Shown here one piece after another: positions 15,896-36,645 of a stretch of 64,000 nucleotides of DNA; the stretch's first letter is position 1, and every line of letters starts with the position of its first letter. The stretch lies in IMG/VR virus record IMGVR_UViG_3300032242_002232, positions 1 to 64,000 of that record; one strand, 5' to 3'. The DNA is from a virus. The position numbers were made by a program, and so were the translations under genes. The notes below the pieces were generated by a model, which made no database searches, was not told where the DNA came from, and saw nothing but the letters and a program-made list of their open reading frames with translations.

Positions 15896-16064
15896 CTTTT
15901 TCCTTAGGGTTACGTAGACGATATGTTGCTATCCATAAAAATACGGAGATAAGGATTGCATCTCCAACTACAGTTTTAGCACTACCAGTTAATACCAACC
16001 ATGCAGCAAATAAACCTACAAAGGTCCAAATTTGGTTAGCTAAATCTTGCAAGATGCCTTTCAT
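15879..16064 (-). CDS. small 2-TM membrane protein
   Basis: WTFVGLFAAWLVL, ILISVFLWIATY. Confidence 0.7.
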   Translation of the reverse strand: MKGILQDLANQIWTFVGLFAAWLVLTGSAKTVVGDAILISVFLWIATYRLRNPKEKDEQTN

Positions 16065-17782
16065 TAGAATCTCCTTCTTAGTTGTGAAATTCCAGAGGCA
16101 ACAATTGTGGCTACTAGAATCTTTTTAGCTTTTTTACGTGTAACTGGGGACATGTCATTGCCTATGTTTGCCAAAGCAACATACGCATGGTTTAGTGATT
16201 GAATCGCAGCACCTGCACCAGGGATAGCGTCAAGCGCTGCTGGTAGTTCTACAGGTGTTTCTACGATTGGTACGGCAACGTCTGGTGCGTTAAATGTTGT
16301 TCCGCCTGGTTGTCCGATAAATGTGTCCGTAATTGTAATTGCCTCAGGTGGGATAGGTAATCCTGAACCAGGTGGTGGCGGTGGTGGGGTCAAAGTTCCA
16401 TCCTCTTGAATTACCTGCGGTTGACTTTTAGTACCAAAGAACTCAATACCACCGTTTTCTACACCGGGTTTATCTTCCTGTATGTGCGGTATCAGCAGTT
16501 CCTTTGGCGCTTCTTTAGGTGTATCCTCTGGTAATTGGTTAGGGCTATTAGGTACAAGTCCATCTACAACAGGAGGTTCAGGTGCAGGAGCAGGAGCAGG
16601 TAAAGGTTCGGGAGCAGGTGCAGGTTCTGGTGCAGGCTCTGGCGCAGGCGCAGGATCTGGTGCGGGAGCAGGCTGAGGATCAGGTGCGGGTGTTGGGTCT
16701 GGCGCTGGCTCGGGCCCAGGAGCTGGCTCAGGTTGTGGGTCTGGGGCAGGTGCAGGAGCTGGGTCTGGTGCAGGGGCTGGATCGGGAGCGGGAGCGGGCT
16801 CGGTCTGAGGTTCTAGCGCAGGGGCAGGCTCAGGCTCTGGCGCAGGTTGCGGCGCAGGTTCTACAACAGGTGGCTGACTTACAGGCTCCGGCCTTGGAGC
16901 AGGATCCGGTTGAGGATTTACTGGGGCCGGGTCCACTGGTGGAGTTGTAGGCTGTGGAAGAATTGGGTCCGGAGATGGCGCCGGAGACGGCTGAGGCTTT
17001 GGAGAAGGCTGCACAGTTGGCGTTGGCGAAGGCGTTGGCAAAGGCTCGGGAGAAGAGGTAGGTGATGGAGAAGTGGTCACTGTTGCGGTATCTGATACCG
17101 ATGGTTGTATTGACTCCGGTGTGGGGGATGGTGTTGTTTGCGGTGTGGGTTTTATTGAAGAGGAGGGACTAGGAGATGGCGTTGGTTGCTGTGTTGGTTC
17201 TGGGCTTGGGCTCGGGCTTGGTGTTGGGCTATTGGTCGGCGATGCCGAGGGTGAAGCGCTTGCAGAAGGACTCGGATCACTTGTTAGAGTTGGTGATTGA
17301 GTTGGCTGAGGACTTGGCTTGGGAGTGGGGGTTTGAGTTGGTTTGGGAGCCTGTTCTGGAGCAAGACGAATTTTAACTCCATCTGAAAATGCAGAGTAGA
17401 TGTGGTCTGTGTCATCATCAGCCCTAACTCTAAAATCCCACATAGTTGCAGAAGGAACAATTTGATTTAATATTGCAACAGGTATATTAAATTCGGTTTT
17501 TAAAGATTGTTTATCTCCGCCATTACCTGTAGCCATACCAAAACCTGCTCCACAGCCGTTAAAATCTGTAGGGCAGTTAAAAAAAATTGCGTATCTTTCT
17601 ACTTTTCCTGTTTCTGGCGCTTCCCACTGAAGCTTAACAACCCCGTTATTAACTTCTACTTGAAGATTTGTGGGTGCAGAAAGTGTCGGCTCATCACCGA
17701 AGGCTGTTGATACGATTAGTACTGGGTAGAATGCTGCGAATAGTGCGACGGATAATGCTGCGAGTAGGCGCAGTGCTTTTAT
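16064..17782 (-). CDS. surface protein: signal peptide + FnIII-like domain + Pro-rich stalk + C-terminal anchor (ATA start)
   Basis: Frame stays open 82 codons upstream of track start 17536 to an ATA 6 nt after AAGGAG; SAPTNLQV..VKLQWEAP..RY; PEP/PAP repeats. Confidence 0.75.
   Translation of the reverse strand: MKALRLLAALSVALFAAFYPVLIVSTAFGDEPTLSAPTNLQVEVNNGVVKLQWEAPETGKVERYAIFFNCPTDFNGCGAGFGMATGNGGDKQSLKTEFNIPVAILNQIVPSATMWDFRVRADDDTDHIYSAFSDGVKIRLAPEQAPKPTQTPTPKPSPQPTQSPTLTSDPSPSASASPSASPTNSPTPSPSPSPEPTQQPTPSPSPSSSIKPTPQTTPSPTPESIQPSVSDTATVTTSPSPTSSPEPLPTPSPTPTVQPSPKPQPSPAPSPDPILPQPTTPPVDPAPVNPQPDPAPRPEPVSQPPVVEPAPQPAPEPEPAPALEPQTEPAPAPDPAPAPDPAPAPAPDPQPEPAPGPEPAPDPTPAPDPQPAPAPDPAPAPEPAPEPAPAPEPLPAPAPAPEPPVVDGLVPNSPNQLPEDTPKEAPKELLIPHIQEDKPGVENGGIEFFGTKSQPQVIQEDGTLTPPPPPPGSGLPIPPEAITITDTFIGQPGGTTFNAPDVAVPIVETPVELPAALDAIPGAGAAIQSLNHAYVALANIGNDMSPVTRKKAKKILVATIVASGISQLRRRF
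16560..17360 (-). repeat. Pro-rich low-complexity coding repeats
   Basis: PSP/PTP and PAP/PEP/PDP repeats. Confidence 0.85.
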
Positions 17783-22692: not shown

Positions 22693-23271
22693 ATGAGCGA
22701 TCTATTTGGAAGTGCCAAAAGCCCTGCTGATCTTGGCGGGGAGTATATTGAAGTAAAAGACGACAGCGATAAAATTCGTCTACTTTACTGCTGGGATTGT
22801 AAAACCATCGAGGAATTACCTGATTTTGAAGGAAATCCCGATGATGACATTACTCTAGAATTTGCTATTGAAAAGCATGAGTCTGCTGGAATTAAACATG
22901 CGGGTTCATTACTAAAAGTTGGAAGTGAAACTTGGGGCAAGGAAGCTGCGCGTAAGCAGATAATTAAGAGTTTACGAGATCAAGCAGGAGGCCTAGGAGG
23001 CGGACTTGCAGATATTGATCCAGAGTACTACCACACTAAATCAACCTTTGGTGAAGATGCTATGAAGTGTTACGACCTACACTTGCGCCCTGCAGGAATG
23101 TGCGCAGACTATGGTTCAGACCGCAAGAAGATCGTACCAAAGACTCAGGCAGATCGTAAAGAGTTGGGACTTCCTGTCTCAACCACTAGTATTTACCTGT
23201 GTGACTTCTGTGTAGTGAAGTCGTTCGTAGTAACAAAACAACGTAAACAAGCCGGCATGTATAACGATTAG
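22693..23271 (+). CDS. Zn-binding hypothetical protein
   Basis: CWDC, H..H, C..H..C, LCDFC; SD AAGGAG. Confidence 0.7.
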   Translation: MSDLFGSAKSPADLGGEYIEVKDDSDKIRLLYCWDCKTIEELPDFEGNPDDDITLEFAIEKHESAGIKHAGSLLKVGSETWGKEAARKQIIKSLRDQAGGLGGGLADIDPEYYHTKSTFGEDAMKCYDLHLRPAGMCADYGSDRKKIVPKTQADRKELGLPVSTTSIYLCDFCVVKSFVVTKQRKQAGMYND

Positions 23272-23280
23272 GAGCAACAA

Positions 23281-23580
23281 ATGACAGAAGTAACAGTAGA
23301 TGACGCAACAATTGTAAATGAAGATGGAACAACTAACGATCAGAAGAGTGCATTACCAAATATTAAGTTTGGTTTTGTAGTTCTTGTAGATACAGACGGA
23401 ACAATGTATATTGAACGTAACAAGGCAGCAATTGCTGGAGTAGACGTAGAACGTGACGCCACCCTAATTGAAGTTCGTCGTTATTGCCAAGAGGTTCTAT
23501 TCGATCTCGCAGCACAAGCCGCTGCCGAATACACCACTCTTCGTCTATCCCCACCAGCTTCACAGGAGCCTACTAACTAA
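23281..23580 (+). CDS. hypothetical protein
   Basis: SD AGGAG. Confidence 0.65.
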   Translation: MTEVTVDDATIVNEDGTTNDQKSALPNIKFGFVVLVDTDGTMYIERNKAAIAGVDVERDATLIEVRRYCQEVLFDLAAQAAAEYTTLRLSPPASQEPTN

Positions 23581-23613
23581 GACGTAACGACAAAAAAGGT
23601 AGATAATTAGACC

Positions 23614-24546
23614 ATGGACAAAGACAGGCTTTTGGCTAAATTTGGTGAAGTGGTTGATATATCTCCAGGGTCAACCTCATACTTCAGCACGCCTGATGCG
23701 GGTTTAGATCCAAACCTTTTTATCGGTAATCACATAAAGCCTTGGGTTAGAAATAACATAGTCCGAATTTTATTTGATCACTTATCTCTTCAGTACTCCG
23801 GACCCAGCAAGTGGGCACATGTATGGCTTGCTGGTTCCGGTGTTTCTTACCAATGGTCTGCACACAGAGATCCTGGTGATTTAGACTGCTTGGTTGGTAT
23901 TAATTATCCAGTTTTTAGACAAGCTAACTTAGAATACGCAGGTTTATCCAATGTTGAGATCGCTTCGATGTTCAATGAGGGTTTTAATGAAGACCTCTTA
24001 CCAGAAACCAAAAACTGGAATGGGTATGAGCTCACCTACTACGTCAACCCTCAGTCAGATATCAAGGATATTAACCCGTACGCTGCTTACGATCTTACTG
24101 AAGATAGTTGGACGGTAGAGCCAAACCCATCAGACCACGCACCTTTTTCTCGTGCTTGGGAACAACAAGCTAATCGTGATTACAATGTTGCTATGGAATT
24201 AGTGTCTAGATATCAACTTGCTTTAGCAGATATTAAGTCTGCACCAAACGACGCTTATAGACTTAATGCTGAAAGACGTTTGATGCTAGCGGTGGACCAA
24301 GCAGTAGCAGTGTATGATGATATACATTCTGGGCGTAAAGAAGCCTTTAGCTCTACAGGTGCGGGTTATTATGATTTTCACAACTATAGGTGGCAAGCCG
24401 GTAAAAAATCTGGCGTAGTTCAAGCTTTGAAGGCAATAAAAAGTTATAAAGATGAGATTCAAAAAGAAAGTCAATTAGAACTATACGGCGTGGAACTTCC
24501 AACAGCCCGAACCCTTATTAGAAGAGTAGCGCAGAAGAAAAAATGA
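23614..24546 (+). CDS. Pol-beta superfamily nucleotidyltransferase
   Basis: hG[S] motif WLAGSGVS plus GDLDCLV (DxD); third acidic residue in YELTYY; leaderless GATAAT-6-ATG. Confidence 0.75.
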   Translation: MDKDRLLAKFGEVVDISPGSTSYFSTPDAGLDPNLFIGNHIKPWVRNNIVRILFDHLSLQYSGPSKWAHVWLAGSGVSYQWSAHRDPGDLDCLVGINYPVFRQANLEYAGLSNVEIASMFNEGFNEDLLPETKNWNGYELTYYVNPQSDIKDINPYAAYDLTEDSWTVEPNPSDHAPFSRAWEQQANRDYNVAMELVSRYQLALADIKSAPNDAYRLNAERRLMLAVDQAVAVYDDIHSGRKEAFSSTGAGYYDFHNYRWQAGKKSGVVQALKAIKSYKDEIQKESQLELYGVELPTARTLIRRVAQKKK

Positions 24547-25007
24547 CAGCATTGGTTTCGTTAGATGGAGTTCTACGAACCGAAGTGGGTGATCCAATAC
24601 ATGAGGGTCTAAAGCTTTATCGAGTTCTCCTAACAAGCTATCGAGTAGTTATAGCTACTGATGGTACGAAAGATGAGGCCGAGCATTGGCTGCGAGCTAA
24701 TATGGTTGTTGGCCATGCCGATTTGCTAGACAATACCCTAGCTTATGAAGGGCAAGACCTTAGATTGAGACAGCTGCAGGTTATGCGGTCTTTGGGGGCC
24801 GTTGAGCTCTTTGTTGATGCTGATGTAGACCGTATATCTAAAGCATACGGGTCGGGAGTAACTTCCCTTATGTTTGCCGCACCTAAATTTGTTAGAACCA
24901 AGCGTCAGGTAAAGCCTTGGGATGAGTTAAAAACAGAGTTAGAGAACCAGAAAGAGCTTCGGGCAAAGCTTGCATTTGACGACCTATCCGCCCATAGATG
25001 GGAATAA
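24543..25007 (+). CDS. HAD-fold protein with degenerate motif I
   Basis: VSLDGVL (Ser at nucleophile Asp), IATD, LFVDAD. Confidence 0.65.
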   Translation: MTALVSLDGVLRTEVGDPIHEGLKLYRVLLTSYRVVIATDGTKDEAEHWLRANMVVGHADLLDNTLAYEGQDLRLRQLQVMRSLGAVELFVDADVDRISKAYGSGVTSLMFAAPKFVRTKRQVKPWDELKTELENQKELRAKLAFDDLSAHRWE

Positions 25008-25010
25008 CGG

Positions 25011-26474
25011 ATGGATATTGTATTTTTGGGTGGAGAAGTCCCCTCTCACCGTAAACTCTTAGAAGAAGCTGGCGTAAAGCATATTGGAGTCAATTACTGG
25101 CGCCTTGTGAAGCGAGGCCTACCCACAACTAAAGACTATTTGATCTCAGATCGCTTTGATGATGCCACACATGTATACGTGACCGCAAAGATCAATAATG
25201 AGAAAGAACTGACCAAGGAAGAGCTGGTTGAGTTTGATACCAACTTTGAAGACTGGGTTATTGTAAACAGCGACCGTATTGACATTGCTATTGAGTTTAA
25301 CTCTTCTCTGGGCAAGGCATACCTTGAAGAGTCTCGAGAGACTTTTTGGACTGACTTTGGACATGACCGATTTGTCCCAATTTGGGACCACACTCAAGGA
25401 CATAACGAGCTTCATCGTTTAGCAAAGAAATACCCTAATGTTGGTATTAACGGTCCGTCCATTAATGAGGATAAGGCGCTAGCTGGCGTTACACGAGCTC
25501 TTGTCACACAGTTTGGTACAAAGTTTCACGCCATAGGATTTATGAACCCAGAGAACCTACGACAGATCCCATTTACCTCTGTAAGTACCTTGGCATGGCT
25601 ATCCCCAATGATGAGAGGTGAAACCATTGTCTGGGATGGTAAGAAACTTCATCGTTACCCTAAGCGCATGAAAGATCAAGCTCGTGCACGCTATAAAGCG
25701 GTCATAGAGAAGGCGGGATTAGACTATGATTTGATCCTAGCCGATGACTCCAATGAGGTAACAAAGCTTGCAATTTGGTCGTATCTACAGTTGGAGAATT
25801 CTTTGAATAATGGTTTTAACCCCTTGTTATCTGATAACAGTGAGTTTAGGGATGATCCAGGTGAAGCGGAAACAGGTGGGGTTGAACCTGATAACAGGGC
25901 TATAGACATGCGGAATAATTTAGAGACAAGAGACCCAGAAACCCTCCAACCTTTGCCGGTTTTTGGCATTTCAAGTAAGACGGTTATGGAAAAAGATGAG
26001 TTTGGGCAAACCACAATTCGGGATGTTCCGGTACTAAACAGCTCTACTGTATCGCTTCGACAGTGCAATACCTGCTTTGTGGCAAACAATTGCCCAGCCT
26101 TTAAACCCAACAACTCATGTGCTTTTAATCTCCCAATTGAGGTAAAGACTAAAGACCAATTAAAGGCTTTATTGAATACAATGATTGAAATACAAGGCTC
26201 CCGCGTTGCTTTTGCTCGATTTGCAGAAGAATTAAACGGAGGATATCCTGACCCAAATACTTCCCAAGAGATGGACCGACTCTTCAAATTGGTCAAGCAA
26301 ATGAAGGAACTGGAGGAGAACAAGGAGTTTGTAAGGATGACAGTAGAGCGCCAGACCTCTGGCGGTGTAATGTCTGCCTTGTTTGGGGATAAAGCCACGA
26401 CTCTTCGTGAGCTCCCAAATGATGGGTTATCTGAGACTGCGGTATCGCAGATCCTCTCAGACGGCCTTGAGTAA
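25011..26474 (+). CDS. TGT/DpdA-like TIM-barrel protein with C-terminal Cys4/helical domain
   Basis: IVFLGG, FVPIWD, KFHAIG, IPFTSVSTLAW; CNTC-x5-C-x8-C. Confidence 0.5.
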   Translation: MDIVFLGGEVPSHRKLLEEAGVKHIGVNYWRLVKRGLPTTKDYLISDRFDDATHVYVTAKINNEKELTKEELVEFDTNFEDWVIVNSDRIDIAIEFNSSLGKAYLEESRETFWTDFGHDRFVPIWDHTQGHNELHRLAKKYPNVGINGPSINEDKALAGVTRALVTQFGTKFHAIGFMNPENLRQIPFTSVSTLAWLSPMMRGETIVWDGKKLHRYPKRMKDQARARYKAVIEKAGLDYDLILADDSNEVTKLAIWSYLQLENSLNNGFNPLLSDNSEFRDDPGEAETGGVEPDNRAIDMRNNLETRDPETLQPLPVFGISSKTVMEKDEFGQTTIRDVPVLNSSTVSLRQCNTCFVANNCPAFKPNNSCAFNLPIEVKTKDQLKALLNTMIEIQGSRVAFARFAEELNGGYPDPNTSQEMDRLFKLVKQMKELEENKEFVRMTVERQTSGGVMSALFGDKATTLRELPNDGLSETAVSQILSDGLE

Positions 26475-26521: not shown

Positions 26522-28570
26522 GTGTCCGTGTTTTCTTTTACCCTAAGCGATGATTTTGTAGGTTCTTACCAAGATAAGAAAGTCCCTTGGGGCTATCAAG
26601 ACGCGGCAGGCAACTCCGTAGGTGAGATCATTTTTCTTAGAACCTACTCTCGTCTTAAGGAAGATGGAACCAAAGAGACTTGGGTTGATGTATGCGAACG
26701 CGTCATTAACGGCATGTACTCACTACAAAAAGATCACGCTAAAACCAATCGCCTACCGTGGTCAGACACTAAAGCCGCGGCTTCAGCTAAAGAGGCTTTT
26801 GACCGCCTATTCAACCTAAAGTGGACACCGCCAGGGCGTGGACTTTGGGTTATGGGAACTCCGCTTGTAAATGTTCAAAAGAATTCAGCCGCCCTTCAAA
26901 ACTGTGCTTTTGTATCTACAAACTCTATGACCAAGAACGACCCTGCTAAGCCTTTTGCTTTTCTTATGGAAGCTTCCATGCTAGGAGTTGGAGTTGGCTT
27001 TGACGATAAGGGTGCAGACAAAGAATTTTCAATTTACTCCCCAACAGAAGGAGATGCCTATGTCATCCCAGACACCAGAGAAGGATGGGTCGAATCAACC
27101 TCAGCCCTCATCAATTCCTACCTTAAGCCAGATCAGAAGCGCCCTGTCTTTGACTACTCCGTCATCCGACCAGAAGGGACTCCGATTAAAACCTTTGGAG
27201 GAACAGCAGCTGGAGCAGATCCGCTCATTAAGCTCCATGGACACATTGATAGGATTTTCAAAGATAGATCTGGACAAAAACTTACTCGCGTAGATATCGC
27301 GGACATTGGCAACCTTATTGGTGTATGTGTTGTTTCTGGTAACGTACGTCGTTCAGCAGAGCTTCTTATTGGCCGAATTGATGACCAGGAGTTCTTAGAC
27401 CTAAAGAATGCTGAAAAGTTCCCTGAGCGTAACTCGTATTCTAAGAAAGCTCCAGGATGGGGTTGGATGTCTAACAACTCCGTAGAAACGTCGGTCGGCA
27501 CAGATCTATCGCCCATTATTGAGGGTATCAGCCGTAACGGAGAGCCGGGCGTAATTTGGATGGATGTAACCCGTAAATACGGTCGTTTAGCGGATCCAAT
27601 TAACAATAAGGACTGGCGAGCTGCTGGGTATAACCCTTGCGCTGAACAGAGCCTTGAGTCATTTGAGTGCTGTACTTTGGTTGAGACATACCTCAACCGT
27701 CATGACAGTTTAGAAGACTACAAGCGCACACTTAAGTTTGCATATCTGTACGCCAAGACGGTAACTCTTGTCCCAACTCATTGGGAAGAAACTAACGCCA
27801 TTATGCAACGCAATCGTCGTATTGGAACATCCATGTCCGGTGTAGCTAACTTTGCTGACAACAAAGGTCTACCAACACTTCGTGAATGGATGGATCAGGG
27901 CTATGGAGTTTTGCAGGCATACGATAAGTCTTACTCAGAGTGGTTGGGTATTCGTGAGTCTATTAAGACCACAACAGTAAAGCCATCAGGAACAGTCTCA
28001 ATCCTAGCGGGAGAATCTCCAGGAGTTCATTGGACTCCAGGAGGTAAGTATTTCCTTCGCACTATTCGTTTTGGTAACACAGACCCAATGCTTCCATTAT
28101 TTAAGTTAGCCAATTACAGAGTGGAGCCGGCAAGCGAATCTCCAGATACAACAACTGTGGTGTATTTCCCAATCAAATCAGACGCTAAGCGCAGTGAAAA
28201 AGAAGTGTCTATCTATGAAAAAATGGCTCTCGCTGCAACGGCTCAGCGTTATTGGTCTGATAACTCAGTCTCTGTGACGGTATCTTTTAACCCCAAGACA
28301 GAGGCGGCTTCTATTGGGACAGCTCTTCATATGTATGATGGTCAATTAAAGACAGTCTCGTTCTTACCAATGGCTACTGGTACATACGAACAAATGCCTT
28401 ATACAACTAGCAATGAAGAAGAGTACGAAGAGGGTAGAATGACCCTATTCCCAATTGACCTAAAAGGGGTTTATGAAGGAATGGCCTTTGACGCAATTGG
28501 AGAGGCTTACTGCACAACAGACGCTTGTGAGGTAAAACTAATTAGAGAGGAAAACAAGAGTGCCAACTGA
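26522..28570 (+). CDS. nrdJ: class II (AdoCbl) ribonucleotide reductase, RTPR type
   Basis: PPGRGLW, LQNC, GNVRRSA, NPCAEQSLE, CCTLVE, TVKPSGT, C-terminal CTTDAC. Confidence 0.95.
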   Translation: MSVFSFTLSDDFVGSYQDKKVPWGYQDAAGNSVGEIIFLRTYSRLKEDGTKETWVDVCERVINGMYSLQKDHAKTNRLPWSDTKAAASAKEAFDRLFNLKWTPPGRGLWVMGTPLVNVQKNSAALQNCAFVSTNSMTKNDPAKPFAFLMEASMLGVGVGFDDKGADKEFSIYSPTEGDAYVIPDTREGWVESTSALINSYLKPDQKRPVFDYSVIRPEGTPIKTFGGTAAGADPLIKLHGHIDRIFKDRSGQKLTRVDIADIGNLIGVCVVSGNVRRSAELLIGRIDDQEFLDLKNAEKFPERNSYSKKAPGWGWMSNNSVETSVGTDLSPIIEGISRNGEPGVIWMDVTRKYGRLADPINNKDWRAAGYNPCAEQSLESFECCTLVETYLNRHDSLEDYKRTLKFAYLYAKTVTLVPTHWEETNAIMQRNRRIGTSMSGVANFADNKGLPTLREWMDQGYGVLQAYDKSYSEWLGIRESIKTTTVKPSGTVSILAGESPGVHWTPGGKYFLRTIRFGNTDPMLPLFKLANYRVEPASESPDTTTVVYFPIKSDAKRSEKEVSIYEKMALAATAQRYWSDNSVSVTVSFNPKTEAASIGTALHMYDGQLKTVSFLPMATGTYEQMPYTTSNEEEYEEGRMTLFPIDLKGVYEGMAFDAIGEAYCTTDACEVKLIREENKSAN

Positions 28571-28712
28571 GAACGAAGACTGGGATAAGATTATTGACGA
28601 GTCCGGTTTAGAAGAAGATGAGCTCGCAGAAGAGTACGAATGGGATGACGAAGACCTCGAAGAATGGGAAGAAGCATTCGACGAGGACCTAGAAGAAGAA
28701 GAAGAGGAGTAG
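28560..28712 (+). CDS. 50-aa hyperacidic protein (not in ORF track)
   Basis: MPTENEDWDKIIDESGLEEDELAEEYEWDDEDLEEWEEAFDEDLEEEEEE; SD GAGG. Confidence 0.6.
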   Translation: MPTENEDWDKIIDESGLEEDELAEEYEWDDEDLEEWEEAFDEDLEEEEEE

Positions 28713-28766: not shown

Positions 28767-29372
28767 ATGGAAATCAACAATAAAGTATTACCTATTGTTC
28801 TCCCACTTGACCTCTTTGAAGAACTCAAGACTTACACAATGACTGAGTTCGCCAAGGAAAGAGCTAATCCAACACTTCGTACCCGTATTCCAAACACACA
28901 CGGACGAGTTATATTGACGTCAAATGATCGTAGATTCAAAGACGATAAAGAACCAAACGTTATCGGAAAAGTTCACGAGTATTTACTGCCATTCGTGCGT
29001 GATCACTTCAATGATCAGACCTTATTGCCAACAAAAGGAACTGTAGGCATTTACTTTGGCCCAAGAGCAGAGTTACAGGCCCATATAGATGATGATGCTG
29101 CTGAATATTCTTTTGATATGGTTATTTATAAAGAAGAACCTTGGCCTATTCATATCGATGATAAGACATTCGATTTAGAAGAGAACCAAGGCGTGTTCTT
29201 TAGAGGCAACCATCAGTATCACGGCCGAGATGCTTTCCCGCATCCAGAATCAAATGTGTACGCCTCTGCATGGTTTTATTATTGCCCTCCGGACCATTGG
29301 TACTTTACTCATGGCCCAGAGTTCTTATATGTTAAGCGGGGAGTAGATCCGAAGATACCTTATCTTCAGTAG
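28767..29372 (+). CDS. 2OG-Fe(II) oxygenase
   Basis: LQAHIDD (HxD), WPIHID, HQYHGR. Confidence 0.8.
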   Translation: MEINNKVLPIVLPLDLFEELKTYTMTEFAKERANPTLRTRIPNTHGRVILTSNDRRFKDDKEPNVIGKVHEYLLPFVRDHFNDQTLLPTKGTVGIYFGPRAELQAHIDDDAAEYSFDMVIYKEEPWPIHIDDKTFDLEENQGVFFRGNHQYHGRDAFPHPESNVYASAWFYYCPPDHWYFTHGPEFLYVKRGVDPKIPYLQ

Positions 29373-33262: not shown

Positions 33263-35236
33263 TTACCTGCTTATTCTGCGCTTTTTAATAGCGCCTACAA
33301 CTACCGCTTTGGCAAGTTGTAGTAGATCTTTGCCACCCTTAACTCGAGCAAACAATTCAGCACCATGATCTAGATCATAACGCGGAGGTTGTCCTGCGGC
33401 AATGGCCGCTGCGTTCATTTCTGTGAACTGGGTGTAGTCGCTGTCGCTCATGATTAAGACAAGCGTAGTAAGAACACCACGCTTAGACAGGCGCTTGATG
33501 ATGTCATTGTTTTTATTACTGTCAAATACGCCGTCAGTAATAATGAACATCATCTTGTTTGCACGCTGAGACATCATAAAGTTTTTCTCAGCTTGCAGTA
33601 GTGATACGTGGGGATCAGTACCGCCGTTACCAAAGATGAACTTGTATTTAGTACGCTCAGCTTTGGTGTGTTTTGTATAGGCAACCTCATTCTTGTCATC
33701 AAAGGCATAAACTGTTACCGGGCAATCGATGCTCTCAAGAGCACGCTTGATAGTCCAGCAAGCAATAGAAGCCTTACGATCATTACGATCAGATGACATA
33801 GAACCAGAACGATCGACGAGAATTACGGCTTCGATATCAGTGCTATCGTCGCCTTCGGTCCATCGATCAAATGATTTATCTATATCCGCACCACGCATTA
33901 CGCGTAGCACATTTAACTTACCAGAAACAGTCTCACGCTCCCAGCCTGGCTCAGCTTCATCTTTAAGCTTGCGTAATTCATTGGCAAACTTACGATAGTC
34001 AAGCAGAGCATCGGCAGGAACACCAGTGCTTTCAAACTTACCAAGCGGGTTATCTTCGTCCCAGTTTTCATCACCATGGACGATGATATTTTGCTTGCGC
34101 TTGATGTCTTTGATAACTTCCTTGCGGTTATAGATAGATTGGAGATTGTTGTTCATGGCTTCTTTGAGGTCTTTAGGAAGACCACCTTTGCTTTCTACAT
34201 GGCCTTGACCATGTTGTGCTTTGGCTTTGTCTGTCTCATTGAAGCGTTCTTCTCGCTTAGCAAGTTGTTCATCTGCTGTGCTTGAAGTGTCATCGGCACG
34301 ATCTGTACCAGGTGTATAACCAGTAGGACCATTACCTTCGCCTTCACCCTCACCTTGTCCCTCCCCTTGCGGAGCTGGTGTACCACCCTGAGGTGGCGGT
34401 GTTTGTGTTGGTTGGGCTGGTTCTTTGGCTATGTACTCAGACTCTCGCTTGCCTTGGTTGGCAGCGACTCTAGCATCTCGCTCTTGTGCTTTGCCGGGCT
34501 CTGGTCTACCTTTCTTAATTGGTAGACGCGTGTCGCAATTACCAAGACCACACATGGGTGGGATATCCATTTGGGATATAACCAACTCATGGAACTCTTT
34601 GATAAGTGCTTCAGCTCGTTTGTAGTCACGAGGAAATGCAAGTGACCGATACTCATTAGTAATACGTTGAATATCGGGGATGAGTTCTGGCTTGTAGAAC
34701 AGATCTCTAAACGCCTCTCTGATCTCGACATCGATATGTCTACGACCAGCAATGAGAGGATAGTTAGTGAACGCCATATCTTCTGAACCAGTCAGCCATA
34801 CTAAAGCTGCGGCTTGAAGATAGGGCATGATACTTGGATACCTAGCACAGAGTAAAGACTCGATGCGTTGATCCTCCAAGATATTAAATGCGGTATATAA
34901 GTCTTGCGCTATAACCGATTTAACTAACGTAGTTCCTTCTCGAGGAGTATAGAAGTGATGTGCTAGCTCATGATAGTTGAGACCAGATAACTGGGTCAAC
35001 GTCTCCATAGTCATTTCACCTATATGCTTTTCGTTGATGTAGATATTTTCACCATCAGACCAAGTAACCGCTGGACCGTCTGGTACAACATGTACGTTGA
35101 CGGGATCACCAGTGAGGATGCGGTCAGCACCCTCGTAGACCCGAGACATAGCTGAGAGTTGTAACGCTCTCAGCTGTGCCTTTTCGGTCTTGGTTACCAT
35201 GTAATGAGCATCGTTCTCATCTACTTGATAAGCCAT
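33263..35236 (-). CDS. vWA (MIDAS) protein with N-terminal HExxH domain (CobT-like MoxR partner)
   Basis: YHELAH, NILEDQRIE, DRSGSMS, GGT, ITDG. Confidence 0.88.
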   Translation of the reverse strand: MAYQVDENDAHYMVTKTEKAQLRALQLSAMSRVYEGADRILTGDPVNVHVVPDGPAVTWSDGENIYINEKHIGEMTMETLTQLSGLNYHELAHHFYTPREGTTLVKSVIAQDLYTAFNILEDQRIESLLCARYPSIMPYLQAAALVWLTGSEDMAFTNYPLIAGRRHIDVEIREAFRDLFYKPELIPDIQRITNEYRSLAFPRDYKRAEALIKEFHELVISQMDIPPMCGLGNCDTRLPIKKGRPEPGKAQERDARVAANQGKRESEYIAKEPAQPTQTPPPQGGTPAPQGEGQGEGEGEGNGPTGYTPGTDRADDTSSTADEQLAKREERFNETDKAKAQHGQGHVESKGGLPKDLKEAMNNNLQSIYNRKEVIKDIKRKQNIIVHGDENWDEDNPLGKFESTGVPADALLDYRKFANELRKLKDEAEPGWERETVSGKLNVLRVMRGADIDKSFDRWTEGDDSTDIEAVILVDRSGSMSSDRNDRKASIACWTIKRALESIDCPVTVYAFDDKNEVAYTKHTKAERTKYKFIFGNGGTDPHVSLLQAEKNFMMSQRANKMMFIITDGVFDSNKNNDIIKRLSKRGVLTTLVLIMSDSDYTQFTEMNAAAIAAGQPPRYDLDHGAELFARVKGGKDLLQLAKAVVVGAIKKRRISR

Positions 35237-35250
35237 AATCTATTCCTTTT

Positions 35251-36645
35251 CTACTTACTTGTCTTTAGCCAAGCATCGACTTCTTCACCGATGTTTGATG
35301 CTTCAGGTTTCTGTTCTTCTGTCTCAACGAGACCGAAGTCCTCCTTGATGTTGAACTCATGGGTCATCATGACAAGAGCAACTTTTTCTTGCTCTTCTTT
35401 ATCAAAGTGTGCTACGAAATTAGCAATTGCAAACTCATAGTTGAACTTGATAAACTTTTCCAACTCCATGAACATGTTGGTTGATACTGGAGTCTCAAGG
35501 TCACCCTTGGAAGCCTCAGCACGAAGCTGCTTCGCAATAACGAGAAGCGACTTGTGTGTGATGAGCTTAGACTCTACGTCATCATCGTAATCCCACGGGA
35601 CCTGCAACTCAAAGCGATTACGCATCGCAAAGTTGAGTGGCGTTGTACCGGTGTAATCAGGATTCATAGTTGCAAAGATTGCAAGGTCTGGGTGTGCCTG
35701 AATGGTCTCACCATGATGATCGAGCAGGATCAAGCAGCGTCGTCCATCAAGAAGTGAATACAGAATTGTGTAGATTTTTGGCGAGATAAAGTTGAGCTCG
35801 TCAAGAATAAGAGTACCGCCGTTACGTACAACGTCAGTTACTGGACCGTCAATCCACTCGAACCCACCGCTTCCATCTGGTACATATTTACCGATGAGTT
35901 GGCTAGGTTCTAGAGCAGCATTGCCAGATACAGCAGCTAGACGACGTTTACGTGAGGCAGACCATGCAACAATAGACGTAGTCTTACCAGGGCCGGTAGG
36001 GCCGTAGATAAGCGTGGTCAATCCATTATCTAACGCGTAATCAAATAGGTCAAAGTCAAGAATGTCACCCGTAAGTTTACGGTTGACGTACTTGTTGGCT
36101 TGTTCGATTGGGGGAATCGTAGCTAATGCAATCCGAAGTTTTGAGGTTGAGACAAGCTCTGTCTCTTCGACCTCAGGGGCTGCGGATGTTTGTGTTGGCA
36201 TGAATTGCGCTTCTTCTTGTGAGTCTCGTTCACGACGTAGGTCGTTAACATACTCAGTCAATGAAGGATCCACTACATTCACTCTGTTGTATAGCGCAGT
36301 GATGCGGCTTGGTACTGAACCAAACTCTTCATCTTTATCTGCTTTAGCATACGCTGCCATTGCTTTAGTAGACAACACAGGAGACCAACCGGTCTGTGAT
36401 ATTGCCTGCTCATCAGCAAGAGTAACTGTTATGCCAACAGGTGTAGTAGTGATGTATTCATTGCTTGAGATACTCGCAAGCAACTCAGGTAATGATGTGA
36501 TGTCCCAACGATTTGATTTGCCAGGACCACCATCAGTGAGTCTTGAATAGACCTTTGTCTCATCGTTATGAGGTACGAAAAGTATTTGACGCTTCTCGTC
36601 TCCCATCGATGGTTCATAAGTCTCTACGAACATCGCTATATTCAT
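35251..36645 (-). CDS. MoxR/CbbQ-family AAA+ ATPase
   Basis: GPTGPGKT, WIDGP, ILDELN, ATMNP.Y, AMRNRF. Confidence 0.92.
   Translation of the reverse strand: MNIAMFVETYEPSMGDEKRQILFVPHNDETKVYSRLTDGGPGKSNRWDITSLPELLASISSNEYITTTPVGITVTLADEQAISQTGWSPVLSTKAMAAYAKADKDEEFGSVPSRITALYNRVNVVDPSLTEYVNDLRRERDSQEEAQFMPTQTSAAPEVEETELVSTSKLRIALATIPPIEQANKYVNRKLTGDILDFDLFDYALDNGLTTLIYGPTGPGKTTSIVAWSASRKRRLAAVSGNAALEPSQLIGKYVPDGSGGFEWIDGPVTDVVRNGGTLILDELNFISPKIYTILYSLLDGRRCLILLDHHGETIQAHPDLAIFATMNPDYTGTTPLNFAMRNRFELQVPWDYDDDVESKLITHKSLLVIAKQLRAEASKGDLETPVSTNMFMELEKFIKFNYEFAIANFVAHFDKEEQEKVALVMMTHEFNIKEDFGLVETEEQKPEASNIGEEVDAWLKTSK

Follow-up and report, generated by a model that had tools for sequence, protein, structure and literature searches.

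Our analysis covers 64 kb at the start of a viral record of 99,213 bp (IMG/VR record IMGVR_UViG_3300032242_002232; CheckV completeness 100%). This stretch of 64,000 nucleotides is hereafter called the window, and we studied a group of plus-strand genes in it that encode a nucleotidyltransferase (NT), a HAD-like protein and a TGT-like protein (positions 23614–26474). The TGT-like protein, encoded by the last of these genes (open reading frame (ORF) 25011–26474, 487 aa), contains a barrel that is a genuine homologue of DpdA with the TGT/DpdA fold, and in which the three catalytic aspartates are replaced by T58, N97 and S192. The reading that we favour, and to which we give about even chances, is that the protein descends from DpdA, is now a pseudoenzyme and serves as a binding or scaffold subunit together with the HAD-like protein and a further protein, up192, with an active nucleotidyltransferase as an optional component. 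A literature search did not yield any published description of an Asp-less DpdA-like family. The possibility that "singleton" DpdAs are functionally diverged has been raised before (Hutinet et al. 2019).

The DpdA-type barrel and its replaced catalytic residues

The AlphaFold2 model of the TGT-like protein was built on 100 diverse homologues. Residues 1–266 (positions 25011–25808) form a β/α barrel of the TIM type, modelled with a predicted local distance difference test score (pLDDT) of about 97. The barrel is followed by an acidic linker (residues 267–339, positions 25809–26027; isoelectric point (pI) 4.2), which is mostly disordered and has pLDDT values below 50 at residues 271–304. The C-terminal part (positions 26028–26474) contains the motif C352-x2-C355-x5-C361-x8-C370, of which all four cysteines are invariant in the 100 sequences, an E-x3-GGYPDPN motif, and a tail with predicted helices at residues 381–408, 415–436, 453–465 and 475–486. 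Both the Cys4 motif and the helical tail had been named in the original prediction, which was made from the sequence alone.

That prediction had also assigned the protein to the TGT fold on the basis of barrel motifs, and structure and profile comparisons bear this out. When the model was compared with 48,161 PDB representatives (VIA wide search), the top five clusters all belonged to the TGT family (Z 14.8–16.9, 239–263 residues aligned). These were ArcTGT (1iq8; Z 16.9, 254 residues), DpdA (7ui4; Z 16.3, 257 residues; Z 17.1 in pdb_via), Cap10 (9ntn_B, the third-best cluster; Z 15.5, 239 residues), bacterial TGT (Z 15.3, 261 residues) and QTRT2 (Z 14.8, 263 residues). Other, generic TIM barrels reached Z values of at most 14.2, with 173–236 residues aligned. 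A profile of eight phage DpdAs (those of 9g, CAjan, BcepGomr, Dp-1, Qyrzula and others) aligned by hhalign with the profile of the family over 252 columns (99.3%, E 4e-20), and PHROG 887, which is labelled "queuine tRNA-ribosyltransferase", matched the protein at E 1e-49. In the DpdA alignment, the motifs PIW, FHAIG and PFTSVSTLAW are in register with LPxFH, HGFG and PWYSVDSSSW, respectively. Searches with the protein gave no match in Pfam (including PF01702), NCBIfam or PADLOC, and nothing significant among PDB sequences (phmmer, hmmsearch); the Cys4 domain likewise had no Pfam or PDB sequence match. E. coli TGT used as a tblastn query found bona fide tgt genes only and did not recover phage DpdA.

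Three aspartates are invariant in TGT and DpdA: in DpdA, these are Asp95 (acid/base), Asp130 (base recognition) and Asp256 (nucleophile), and the substitutions D95A and D256A abolish the exchange reaction (PMC10164549). According to the hhalign alignment, D95 of DpdA (D102 of TGT; FLDSG) corresponds to T58 (Y-V-T58-A-K), D130 (TGT D156; LD(GIG)) to N97 (E95-F-N97), and D256 (TGT D280; PWYSVDSSSW) to S192 (P-F-T-S-V-S192-T-L-A-W). The protein has TAK at the DSG position and ST at the DS position, in line with the lack of catalytic aspartates noted from the sequence, and this loss makes base exchange of the TGT/DpdA type almost certainly impossible.

The nucleophile is missing throughout nearly the whole family. 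Among 333 aligned members, position 192 is occupied by S (245), A (32), T (15), G (13) or, in the rest, hydrophobic residues, and Asp is absent from this tally. In the alignment used for the family tree, 156 of the 157 representatives lack the nucleophile Asp, the exception being P0135. The other two positions show many different replacements: Asp is kept at position 58 in about 55–65% of the family and at position 97 in about 80% (65% and 81%, respectively, in the 333-member alignment). By contrast with these sites, little or no variation is seen at E9, E95, W125, H173, W196, G203, E/D204, W208 and the four cysteines. Stepwise decay in many directions at the former catalytic sites, amid strong conservation elsewhere, is, as judged from these alignments, the signature of a pseudoenzyme.

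A likely type of ancestor is found in Bacillus phage BCD7, whose protein gp021 (YP_007005872; PHROG 887; 757 aa) has the same architecture as the TGT-like protein: a DpdA-type barrel, an acidic linker, a C-x2-C-x5-C-x8-C domain and a helical tail. The family barrel matches that of gp021 at E 2e-32 (hhalign, 99.9%), and the Cys4/helical domain matches at 4e-14 (BLASTP). Both proteins have E9, E95 and G203-E204 in common. However, gp021 keeps the three catalytic aspartates (IDSG, ELD, TGDSTTW), its linker, at the same position, is 300 aa long, and its gene is located directly after QueD-QueE-QueC-FolE, whereas the window genome has no preQ0 genes. Homologues of up192, NT or the HAD-like protein were not found in the 10.5 kb around the gp021 gene, and the BCD7 gene product annotated as a nucleotidyltransferase, gp015, shows no similarity to NT of the window by BLASTP. 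A plain tblastn search with the BCD7 barrel bridges both groups, reaching BRock-type proteins at 5e-10 and the canonical DpdA1 of the phages CAjan and Seurat at 1e-4. A search for related loci with gp021 returned BCD7 itself only; the same type of search gave no locus for family member P0220 and one for P0264. In Bacteroides phage BS162P1 (L094:3851-5483), the two parts are split, an Asp-intact barrel gene being followed by a separate gene for the Cys4/helical domain, which indicates that the C-terminal domain is an autonomous accessory module of DpdA.

A FastTree phylogeny of the 157 family representatives, rooted on DpdA1, places the BCD7 and Bacteroides forms as sisters to the Asp-less family, with a support of 0.999 for the joint node. 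Within the Asp-less family, the commonest state at the three catalytic positions is DDS, and D58 and D97 have repeatedly been lost to E, Y, H, T, N or S. Because the TNS state of the window protein is nested among DDS relatives, it is derived.

The linked genes and their products

The NT gene (23614–24546, 310 aa) and the HAD-like gene (24543–25007, 154 aa) share an ATGA overlap, and the TGT-like gene begins after a gap of 3 nt; overlapping start and stop codons are frequent among the module genes. Two further plus-strand genes precede NT: up192 (22693–23271), encoding a Cys/His-rich protein of 192 aa, and up99 (23281–23580), encoding a small acidic protein of 99 aa. A gene for a class II (B12-dependent) ribonucleotide reductase (RNR) follows on the same strand (26522–28570; GTG start; Pfam RNR_Alpha and RNR-II_ins_dom); it is a neighbour and at most a candidate member of the module.

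The order up192, up99, NT, HAD-like, TGT-like, RNR is found in 80 IMG/VR loci (50–97% identity), and the first five genes, with an up99-like gene in place of up99, are also co-linear in a second clade (24 loci, about 33% identity) and in the cultured Streptomyces phages BRock and GiJojo. Of the 80 close loci, 78 have up192 upstream of the module, as do all of the distant ones, among them BRock, where its product is gp42. In fact, up192, the HAD-like gene and the TGT-like gene are linked in every examined locus that has an upstream flank, in two clades and in cultured Streptomyces phages. Linkage of up192 and up99 extends over more than 100 loci. While up99 was found by tblastn in the closer loci, the distant clades have small ORFs after up192 that resemble it (112–113 aa in L096, L098 and BRock gp41; 92 aa in L110) and share a core of the type "FGFVVL..DG"; no family match was obtained for up99 in Pfam or PHROG. 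Many distant loci contain an additional low-complexity gene of 390–590 codons before the TGT-like gene (L002:4787-5953, which is BRock gp37; L096:5628-7001; L098:5210-6985), and this gene is absent from the clade of the window. Hence, the linkage of the three genes proposed originally holds in relatives, but the unit is wider than a trio, as it includes up192, up99 and, in distant clades, the extra gene.

Two members of the proposed arrangement turned out to be less constant. The RNR gene, directly upstream of which the tightly packed trio was said to lie, is adjacent in most loci of the freshwater clade for which the downstream flank is available (74 of 80), but it is absent near the module in BRock-like and other distant clades, so that this observation holds for the window and its clade only. 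Likewise, NT is linked to the module in most genomes, but it is missing from the 7 kb upstream in nine loci of the second clade. A profile search of five such genomes found no NT, and three of the five are 100% complete according to CheckV and keep the rest of the module. The constant core therefore consists of up192, the HAD-like protein and the TGT-like protein, and NT is dispensable.

The up192 protein is a putative metal-binding protein: residues C33, C36, H62, H69, C126, C137, C170 and C173 are conserved without or almost without exception. It gave no Pfam or PDB match and has no known relatives.

The HAD-like protein had been described as a HAD with Ser in place of the nucleophile Asp. 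The protein shows the order of motifs typical of HAD proteins. Its motif I in the window is indeed S6-L-D8-G-V-L, and across the family the nucleophile position is occupied by S, A, Y, F or M and never by Asp. The second acidic residue of the motif also varies (D/E/W/N), and no acidic residue is invariant in the family. The ESM Atlas features of the protein resemble those of NIF/HAD phosphatases at 0.90–0.91, and hhalign placed motifs I and II in register with those of E. coli KdsC at a weak E-value of 0.066; Pfam, NCBIfam, PADLOC, PDB profile and PDB sequence searches returned nothing significant. The absence of the nucleophile thus stands, and the protein is best described as a probable pseudo-phosphatase with a plausible HAD fold.

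For NT, the claim that the catalytic residues are kept is confirmed, as G74-S75, D89-L-D91 and E139 do not vary among 44 relatives. The AlphaFold2 model (pLDDT 92.3) shows an alpha-beta N-terminal domain whose best matches are minimal nucleotidyltransferases of the MNT type (Z 5.7–6.4, about 90–97 residues aligned). The Z values were 6.4 for 1ylq, 6.4 for HI0073, 6.1 for the MNT antitoxin, 5.6 for Tailor, 5.4 for CdnG and 5.3 for CCA-adding enzymes. The C-terminal helical bundle gave generic structural matches only, and it contains a conserved segment with R241, W260, Q261 and K264, of which R241 and K264 are invariant among the 44 relatives. Fourteen of the 44 have a weak match to Pfam DUF6932, and searches of NT in Pfam, NCBIfam and PADLOC gave no other hit. 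No significant match emerged from PDB sequences (phmmer, hmmsearch) or from Foldseek, whose weak matches include CdnD, CdnG and cGAS. The signature of the pol-beta superfamily and the alpha-beta nucleotidyltransferase core are present, and on the strength of the intact residues NT looks like an active enzyme. It resembles MNT types such as HI0073, and MntA of HEPN-MNT pairs, in its N-terminal domain and GS...DxD...E signature. It differs from them in its conserved helical bundle of 130 residues with the above-mentioned R241, K264, W260 and Q261 and in the lack of significant sequence similarity, and no HEPN partner like that of HEPN-MNT pairs was identified beside it.

We also considered whether NT is a class II CCA-adding enzyme acting on the two phage tRNAs, which lack encoded CCA. 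Such enzymes carry a motif A of the GGxVRD type. NT does not have it, its structural match to CCA-adding enzymes is among its lower ones, and it is absent from some complete genomes, so this candidate was rejected.

Possible roles of the Asp-less barrel

The original prediction had remarked that queC, queD, queE and folE are missing from the window. This can be extended to the whole genome: none of these four genes, nor a canonical TGT gene, was found in the complete 99,213-bp record. Pfam QueC and TGT had no match in it, and tblastn with FolE, QueD, QueE, QueC and DpdA of BCD7 and 9g gave a best E-value of 0.19 in the complete genome (a transporter was not searched for). The phage genome does not encode an active TGT or DpdA paralogue either. 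It does contain genes for tRNA-Asn(GUU) and tRNA-Gln(CUG), neither of which encodes CCA, as had been observed. tRNA-Asn(GUU) belongs to the queuosine (Q) class of tRNAs, and a tRNA gene without encoded CCA is ordinary. With no preQ0 pathway, no source of preQ1 or queuine and the triad lost, a link between the module and tRNA-Asn or queuosine is unsupported, and that part of the earlier remark falls away.

We propose the following scenario. The ancestor would have been a long-form phage DpdA of the BCD7 type, composed of barrel, linker and Cys4/helical domain. Its nucleophile Asp would have been lost at the root of what is now a very large phage family, and the other two catalytic aspartates would have followed later in many lineages, including that of the window. 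Such a protein would carry out no base exchange, in a phage that would make no 7-deazaguanine precursor, and it would have been retained under strong selection in a non-catalytic capacity. Its most likely role would be that of a nucleic-acid- or base-binding subunit or a scaffold, acting together with the always-linked up192 and the equally crippled HAD-like protein. NT, the sole component with a complete catalytic set, would be a frequent but dispensable accessory, which may nucleotidylate a partner protein or the end of a nucleic acid. That two enzymes became binding subunits had been suggested originally, and it is the most economical reading of the residue drift on the tree. That the module serves to modify nucleic acids or takes part in nucleotide signalling is still guesswork; no result points to a substrate.

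The conceptually closest precedent for a TGT-family pseudoenzyme is, by analogy, QTRT2, a subunit of eukaryotic TGT in which the TGT fold is kept as a non-catalytic partner (PDB 6FV5 title). Unlike the window protein, QTRT2 is paired with an active paralogue, QTRT1. The comparison with DpdA1 (9g, CAjan) and bacterial DpdA (Salmonella Montevideo, 7UI4) shows a homologous barrel with the same order of motifs (DSG, LPxFH, LD, HGxG, SVDSSSW). Apart from the lost triad, the window protein differs from them by its extra Cys4/helical domain and its other partners (up192, HAD-like, NT), while the ParB-like/DpdB partner and the preQ0 genes of DpdA systems are not present at the window.

Several observations weigh against the pseudoenzyme reading. 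Net charge gives no hint of DNA binding: the pI of the barrel is 6.0, compared with 5.6 for the active DpdA of 9g, and neither charge nor pI of the domain separates active from inactive DpdA forms. For the 154-aa HAD-like protein, the HAD fold is no more than plausible. The monophyly of the Asp-less clade alone has a weak support of 0.57. Moreover, P0135, a metagenomic protein of 485 aa, has a complete triad (LDSG, EFD, TTADSGSW) and sits inside an otherwise Asp-less group, so the nucleophile may have been lost more than once, or have been regained; the contig that encodes P0135 was not found in the viral or metagenome collections. Finally, the retained E9, E95 and E/D204 could, together with H173, make up a re-tooled active site.

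If so, the barrel would be catalytic through these four residues and without a covalent Asp intermediate, for instance as a hydrolytic N-glycosidase or in a reaction on free nucleotides that might be tied to RNR, the HAD-like protein and NT. We regard this as unlikely, though as the most credible of the alternatives. E9 (94%), E95 (91–93%), H173 (84–90%) and E/D204 (97–98.5%) are conserved at strand ends and loops of the barrel, E/D204 sets the long-form subfamily apart from DpdA1, in which A, S or N is found there, and in the freshwater clade the module lies among genes of nucleotide metabolism. However, BCD7 gp021 has E9, E95 and E204 in addition to the canonical triad, and because these residues coexist with the triad, they are not replacement acquisitions. 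In addition, the drift at the former catalytic sites (S/A/T/G/M/L/I/V/Y at position 192, D/E/Y/H/T/N/S at position 58) speaks for relaxed constraint, and adjacency to RNR is confined to one clade.

A structural or packaging role, for instance as a protein resembling the small subunit of terminase or as a DNA-organising protein, appears improbable to us. It was considered because a full-length BFVD neighbour, the 535-aa protein A0A1B3B0G4 of Gordonia phage Jumbo (rank 14), is labelled "terminase small subunit", because the record of Streptomyces phage pSt2308 begins with the TGT-like gene (PV588686.1 408-1832), and because in BRock the module is interleaved with endolysin and lysis-type genes, with a low-complexity gene of 388 aa between the HAD-like and TGT-like genes. 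But that label is an unverified annotation, the TM-score of the match is low (0.28), and a mis-annotation is possible. In the window, moreover, the large terminase and portal genes lie 25 kb away with small upstream ORFs of their own, whereas the module is found among replication and nucleotide genes.

The presence of NT raises the question of whether the TGT-like protein is part of a complex with a nucleotidyltransferase, as in the type IV cyclic-oligonucleotide-based antiphage signalling system (CBASS), and acts as a regulator, mimic or decoy of such signalling. Cap10 of type IV CBASS is a TGT-family protein that has been remodelled to bind a nucleotidyltransferase rather than tRNA; it acts as a clamp on the N-terminus of a CD-NTase bearing a 7-deazaguanine adduct, and it keeps the base-reading and catalytic residues D73, D122 and D248 (bioRxiv 10.1101/2025.04.06.647259). 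It thus offers a precedent for a nucleotidyltransferase-binding TGT-family protein, its barrel (9NTN) was the third-best fold cluster in our search, and the NT gene is positioned directly 5' of the module in most genomes, its product having the weak Foldseek matches to CdnD, CdnG and cGAS. Nevertheless, we consider this pairing very unlikely. Cap10 is catalytically intact and depends on two partners, the QueC-like Cap9 and a CD-NTase whose N-terminus is rich in Gly, whereas the phage protein lacks all of the Cap10 aspartates, a QueC-like Cap9 is not encoded in the genome, and NT begins with MDKDRLL, without a Gly-rich tail. The best matches of NT, all of them weak, are of the MNT type and not CD-NTases, and NT is absent from the three complete genomes that keep the rest of the module.

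Least credible of all is a DpdA or TGT that still works and places 7-deazaguanine supplied by the host in phage DNA or in the phage tRNA-Asn: PHROG 887, RefSeq and SEA-PHAGES carry labels such as "queuine tRNA-ribosyltransferase" or "dpdA-like" and the phage has a tRNA of the Q class, but the three catalytic aspartates are replaced, the preQ0 genes are absent, and the Pfam TGT and PADLOC models do not match. Mycobacterial hosts lack any Q pathway genes (PMC6884629), which makes a supply of precursors unlikely if the host is an actinobacterium. The database label as a working tRNA or DNA transglycosylase is almost certainly wrong.

Surrounding sequence and significance of the family

The assignment of the host is inferred from the nearest cultured phages, which are actinobacterial. 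At the DNA level, RNR shares 73% identity with its counterpart in Actinomycetia phage DSL-LC01, while for the module proteins the identity to those of Streptomyces phages of the BRock group is 25–38%. The genes around the module encode functions in replication and recombination (a helicase, a DNA polymerase, a UvsX-like recombinase and an exonuclease), and the terminase, portal and capsid genes are located 25 kb downstream of it.

Two elements precede the NT gene on the plus strand. A -10-like sequence, TAGATAAT (23600–23607), ends 6 nt before the NT ATG, and a good Shine-Dalgarno sequence is not present before this start; a leaderless start of NT, as originally proposed, is therefore plausible from the sequence. 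Many relatives have a box of the AGAATA(G) type at the same distance from the NT start, and TANNNT is found 5–9 nt upstream of NT in 19 of 66 loci, against a background of 6%. A scan for the sigma-70 consensus gave no match at the TAGATAAT site, and the results of the sigma-70 and terminator scans correspond to chance expectation. Among public sequencing runs, no RNA run with the locus was listed. The second element is a conserved 13-nt box, AAGACGTAACGAC (23579–23591), which lies between the up99 stop and the start of NT. Relatives (L005–L058) carry GAGACGTAACGAC or GAGACATACACC at the position of the box, about 22–30 nt upstream of NT. It is unique in the window, where other matches have three mismatches and are at chance level, and is a possible operator or promoter element specific to this gene.

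Some further features of the window were noted. An ORF of 50 codons (28560–28712, plus strand) overlaps the end of the RNR gene and encodes almost exclusively Glu, Asp and Trp (...EEDELAEEYEWDDEDLEEWEE...); its product may mimic DNA, or the ORF may have arisen by chance. Positions 28767–29372 encode a 201-aa protein that matches PHROG 2954, labelled "ferrochelatase" (E 2e-8), and positions 33263–36645 (minus strand) a MoxR/CobS-like AAA ATPase (PHROG 249, "porphyrin biosynthesis", E 3e-43) adjoining a 657-aa protein; these two regions may represent auxiliary metabolic genes. Between positions 16000 and 18000, the local GC content is 0.50, compared with 0.42–0.46 elsewhere in the window, and the GC skew is 0.24. 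A minus-strand ORF of 490 aa without a PHROG match (16064–17536) is located there, inside an otherwise plus-strand block.

Among the 8,000 candidates that were scored, no fewer than 1,645 clusters at 90% identity matched this large family; there are 897 representatives at 50% identity, and most of the members examined are encoded on phage contigs of roughly 100 kb. If these proteins are taken as enzymes that insert 7-deazaguanine, surveys of phage DNA modification overcount. The Asp-intact relatives are located by preQ0 genes, and the Asp-less ones by the up192, HAD-like and NT genes, which provides a rule for re-annotation, namely, to check the Asp of the SVDSxSW motif. The family is also a clear case of a DNA-modifying enzyme that was turned to another use and kept by selection.

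A more far-reaching idea, which we offer as a speculation with the odds clearly against it, is that up192 and two Asp-less proteins, the DpdA-like and the HAD-like one, form an unrecognised phage complex of two dead enzymes, served in most lineages by the MNT-type NT, that would recognise DNA (for example through reading or flipping guanines without exchanging them) in order to protect, mark or organise the genome. The cultured phages BRock, GiJojo and pSt2308 make the function of the module testable. If the idea is true, the module would constitute a new counter-defence or genome-handling system that is abundant in freshwater and soil actinophages.

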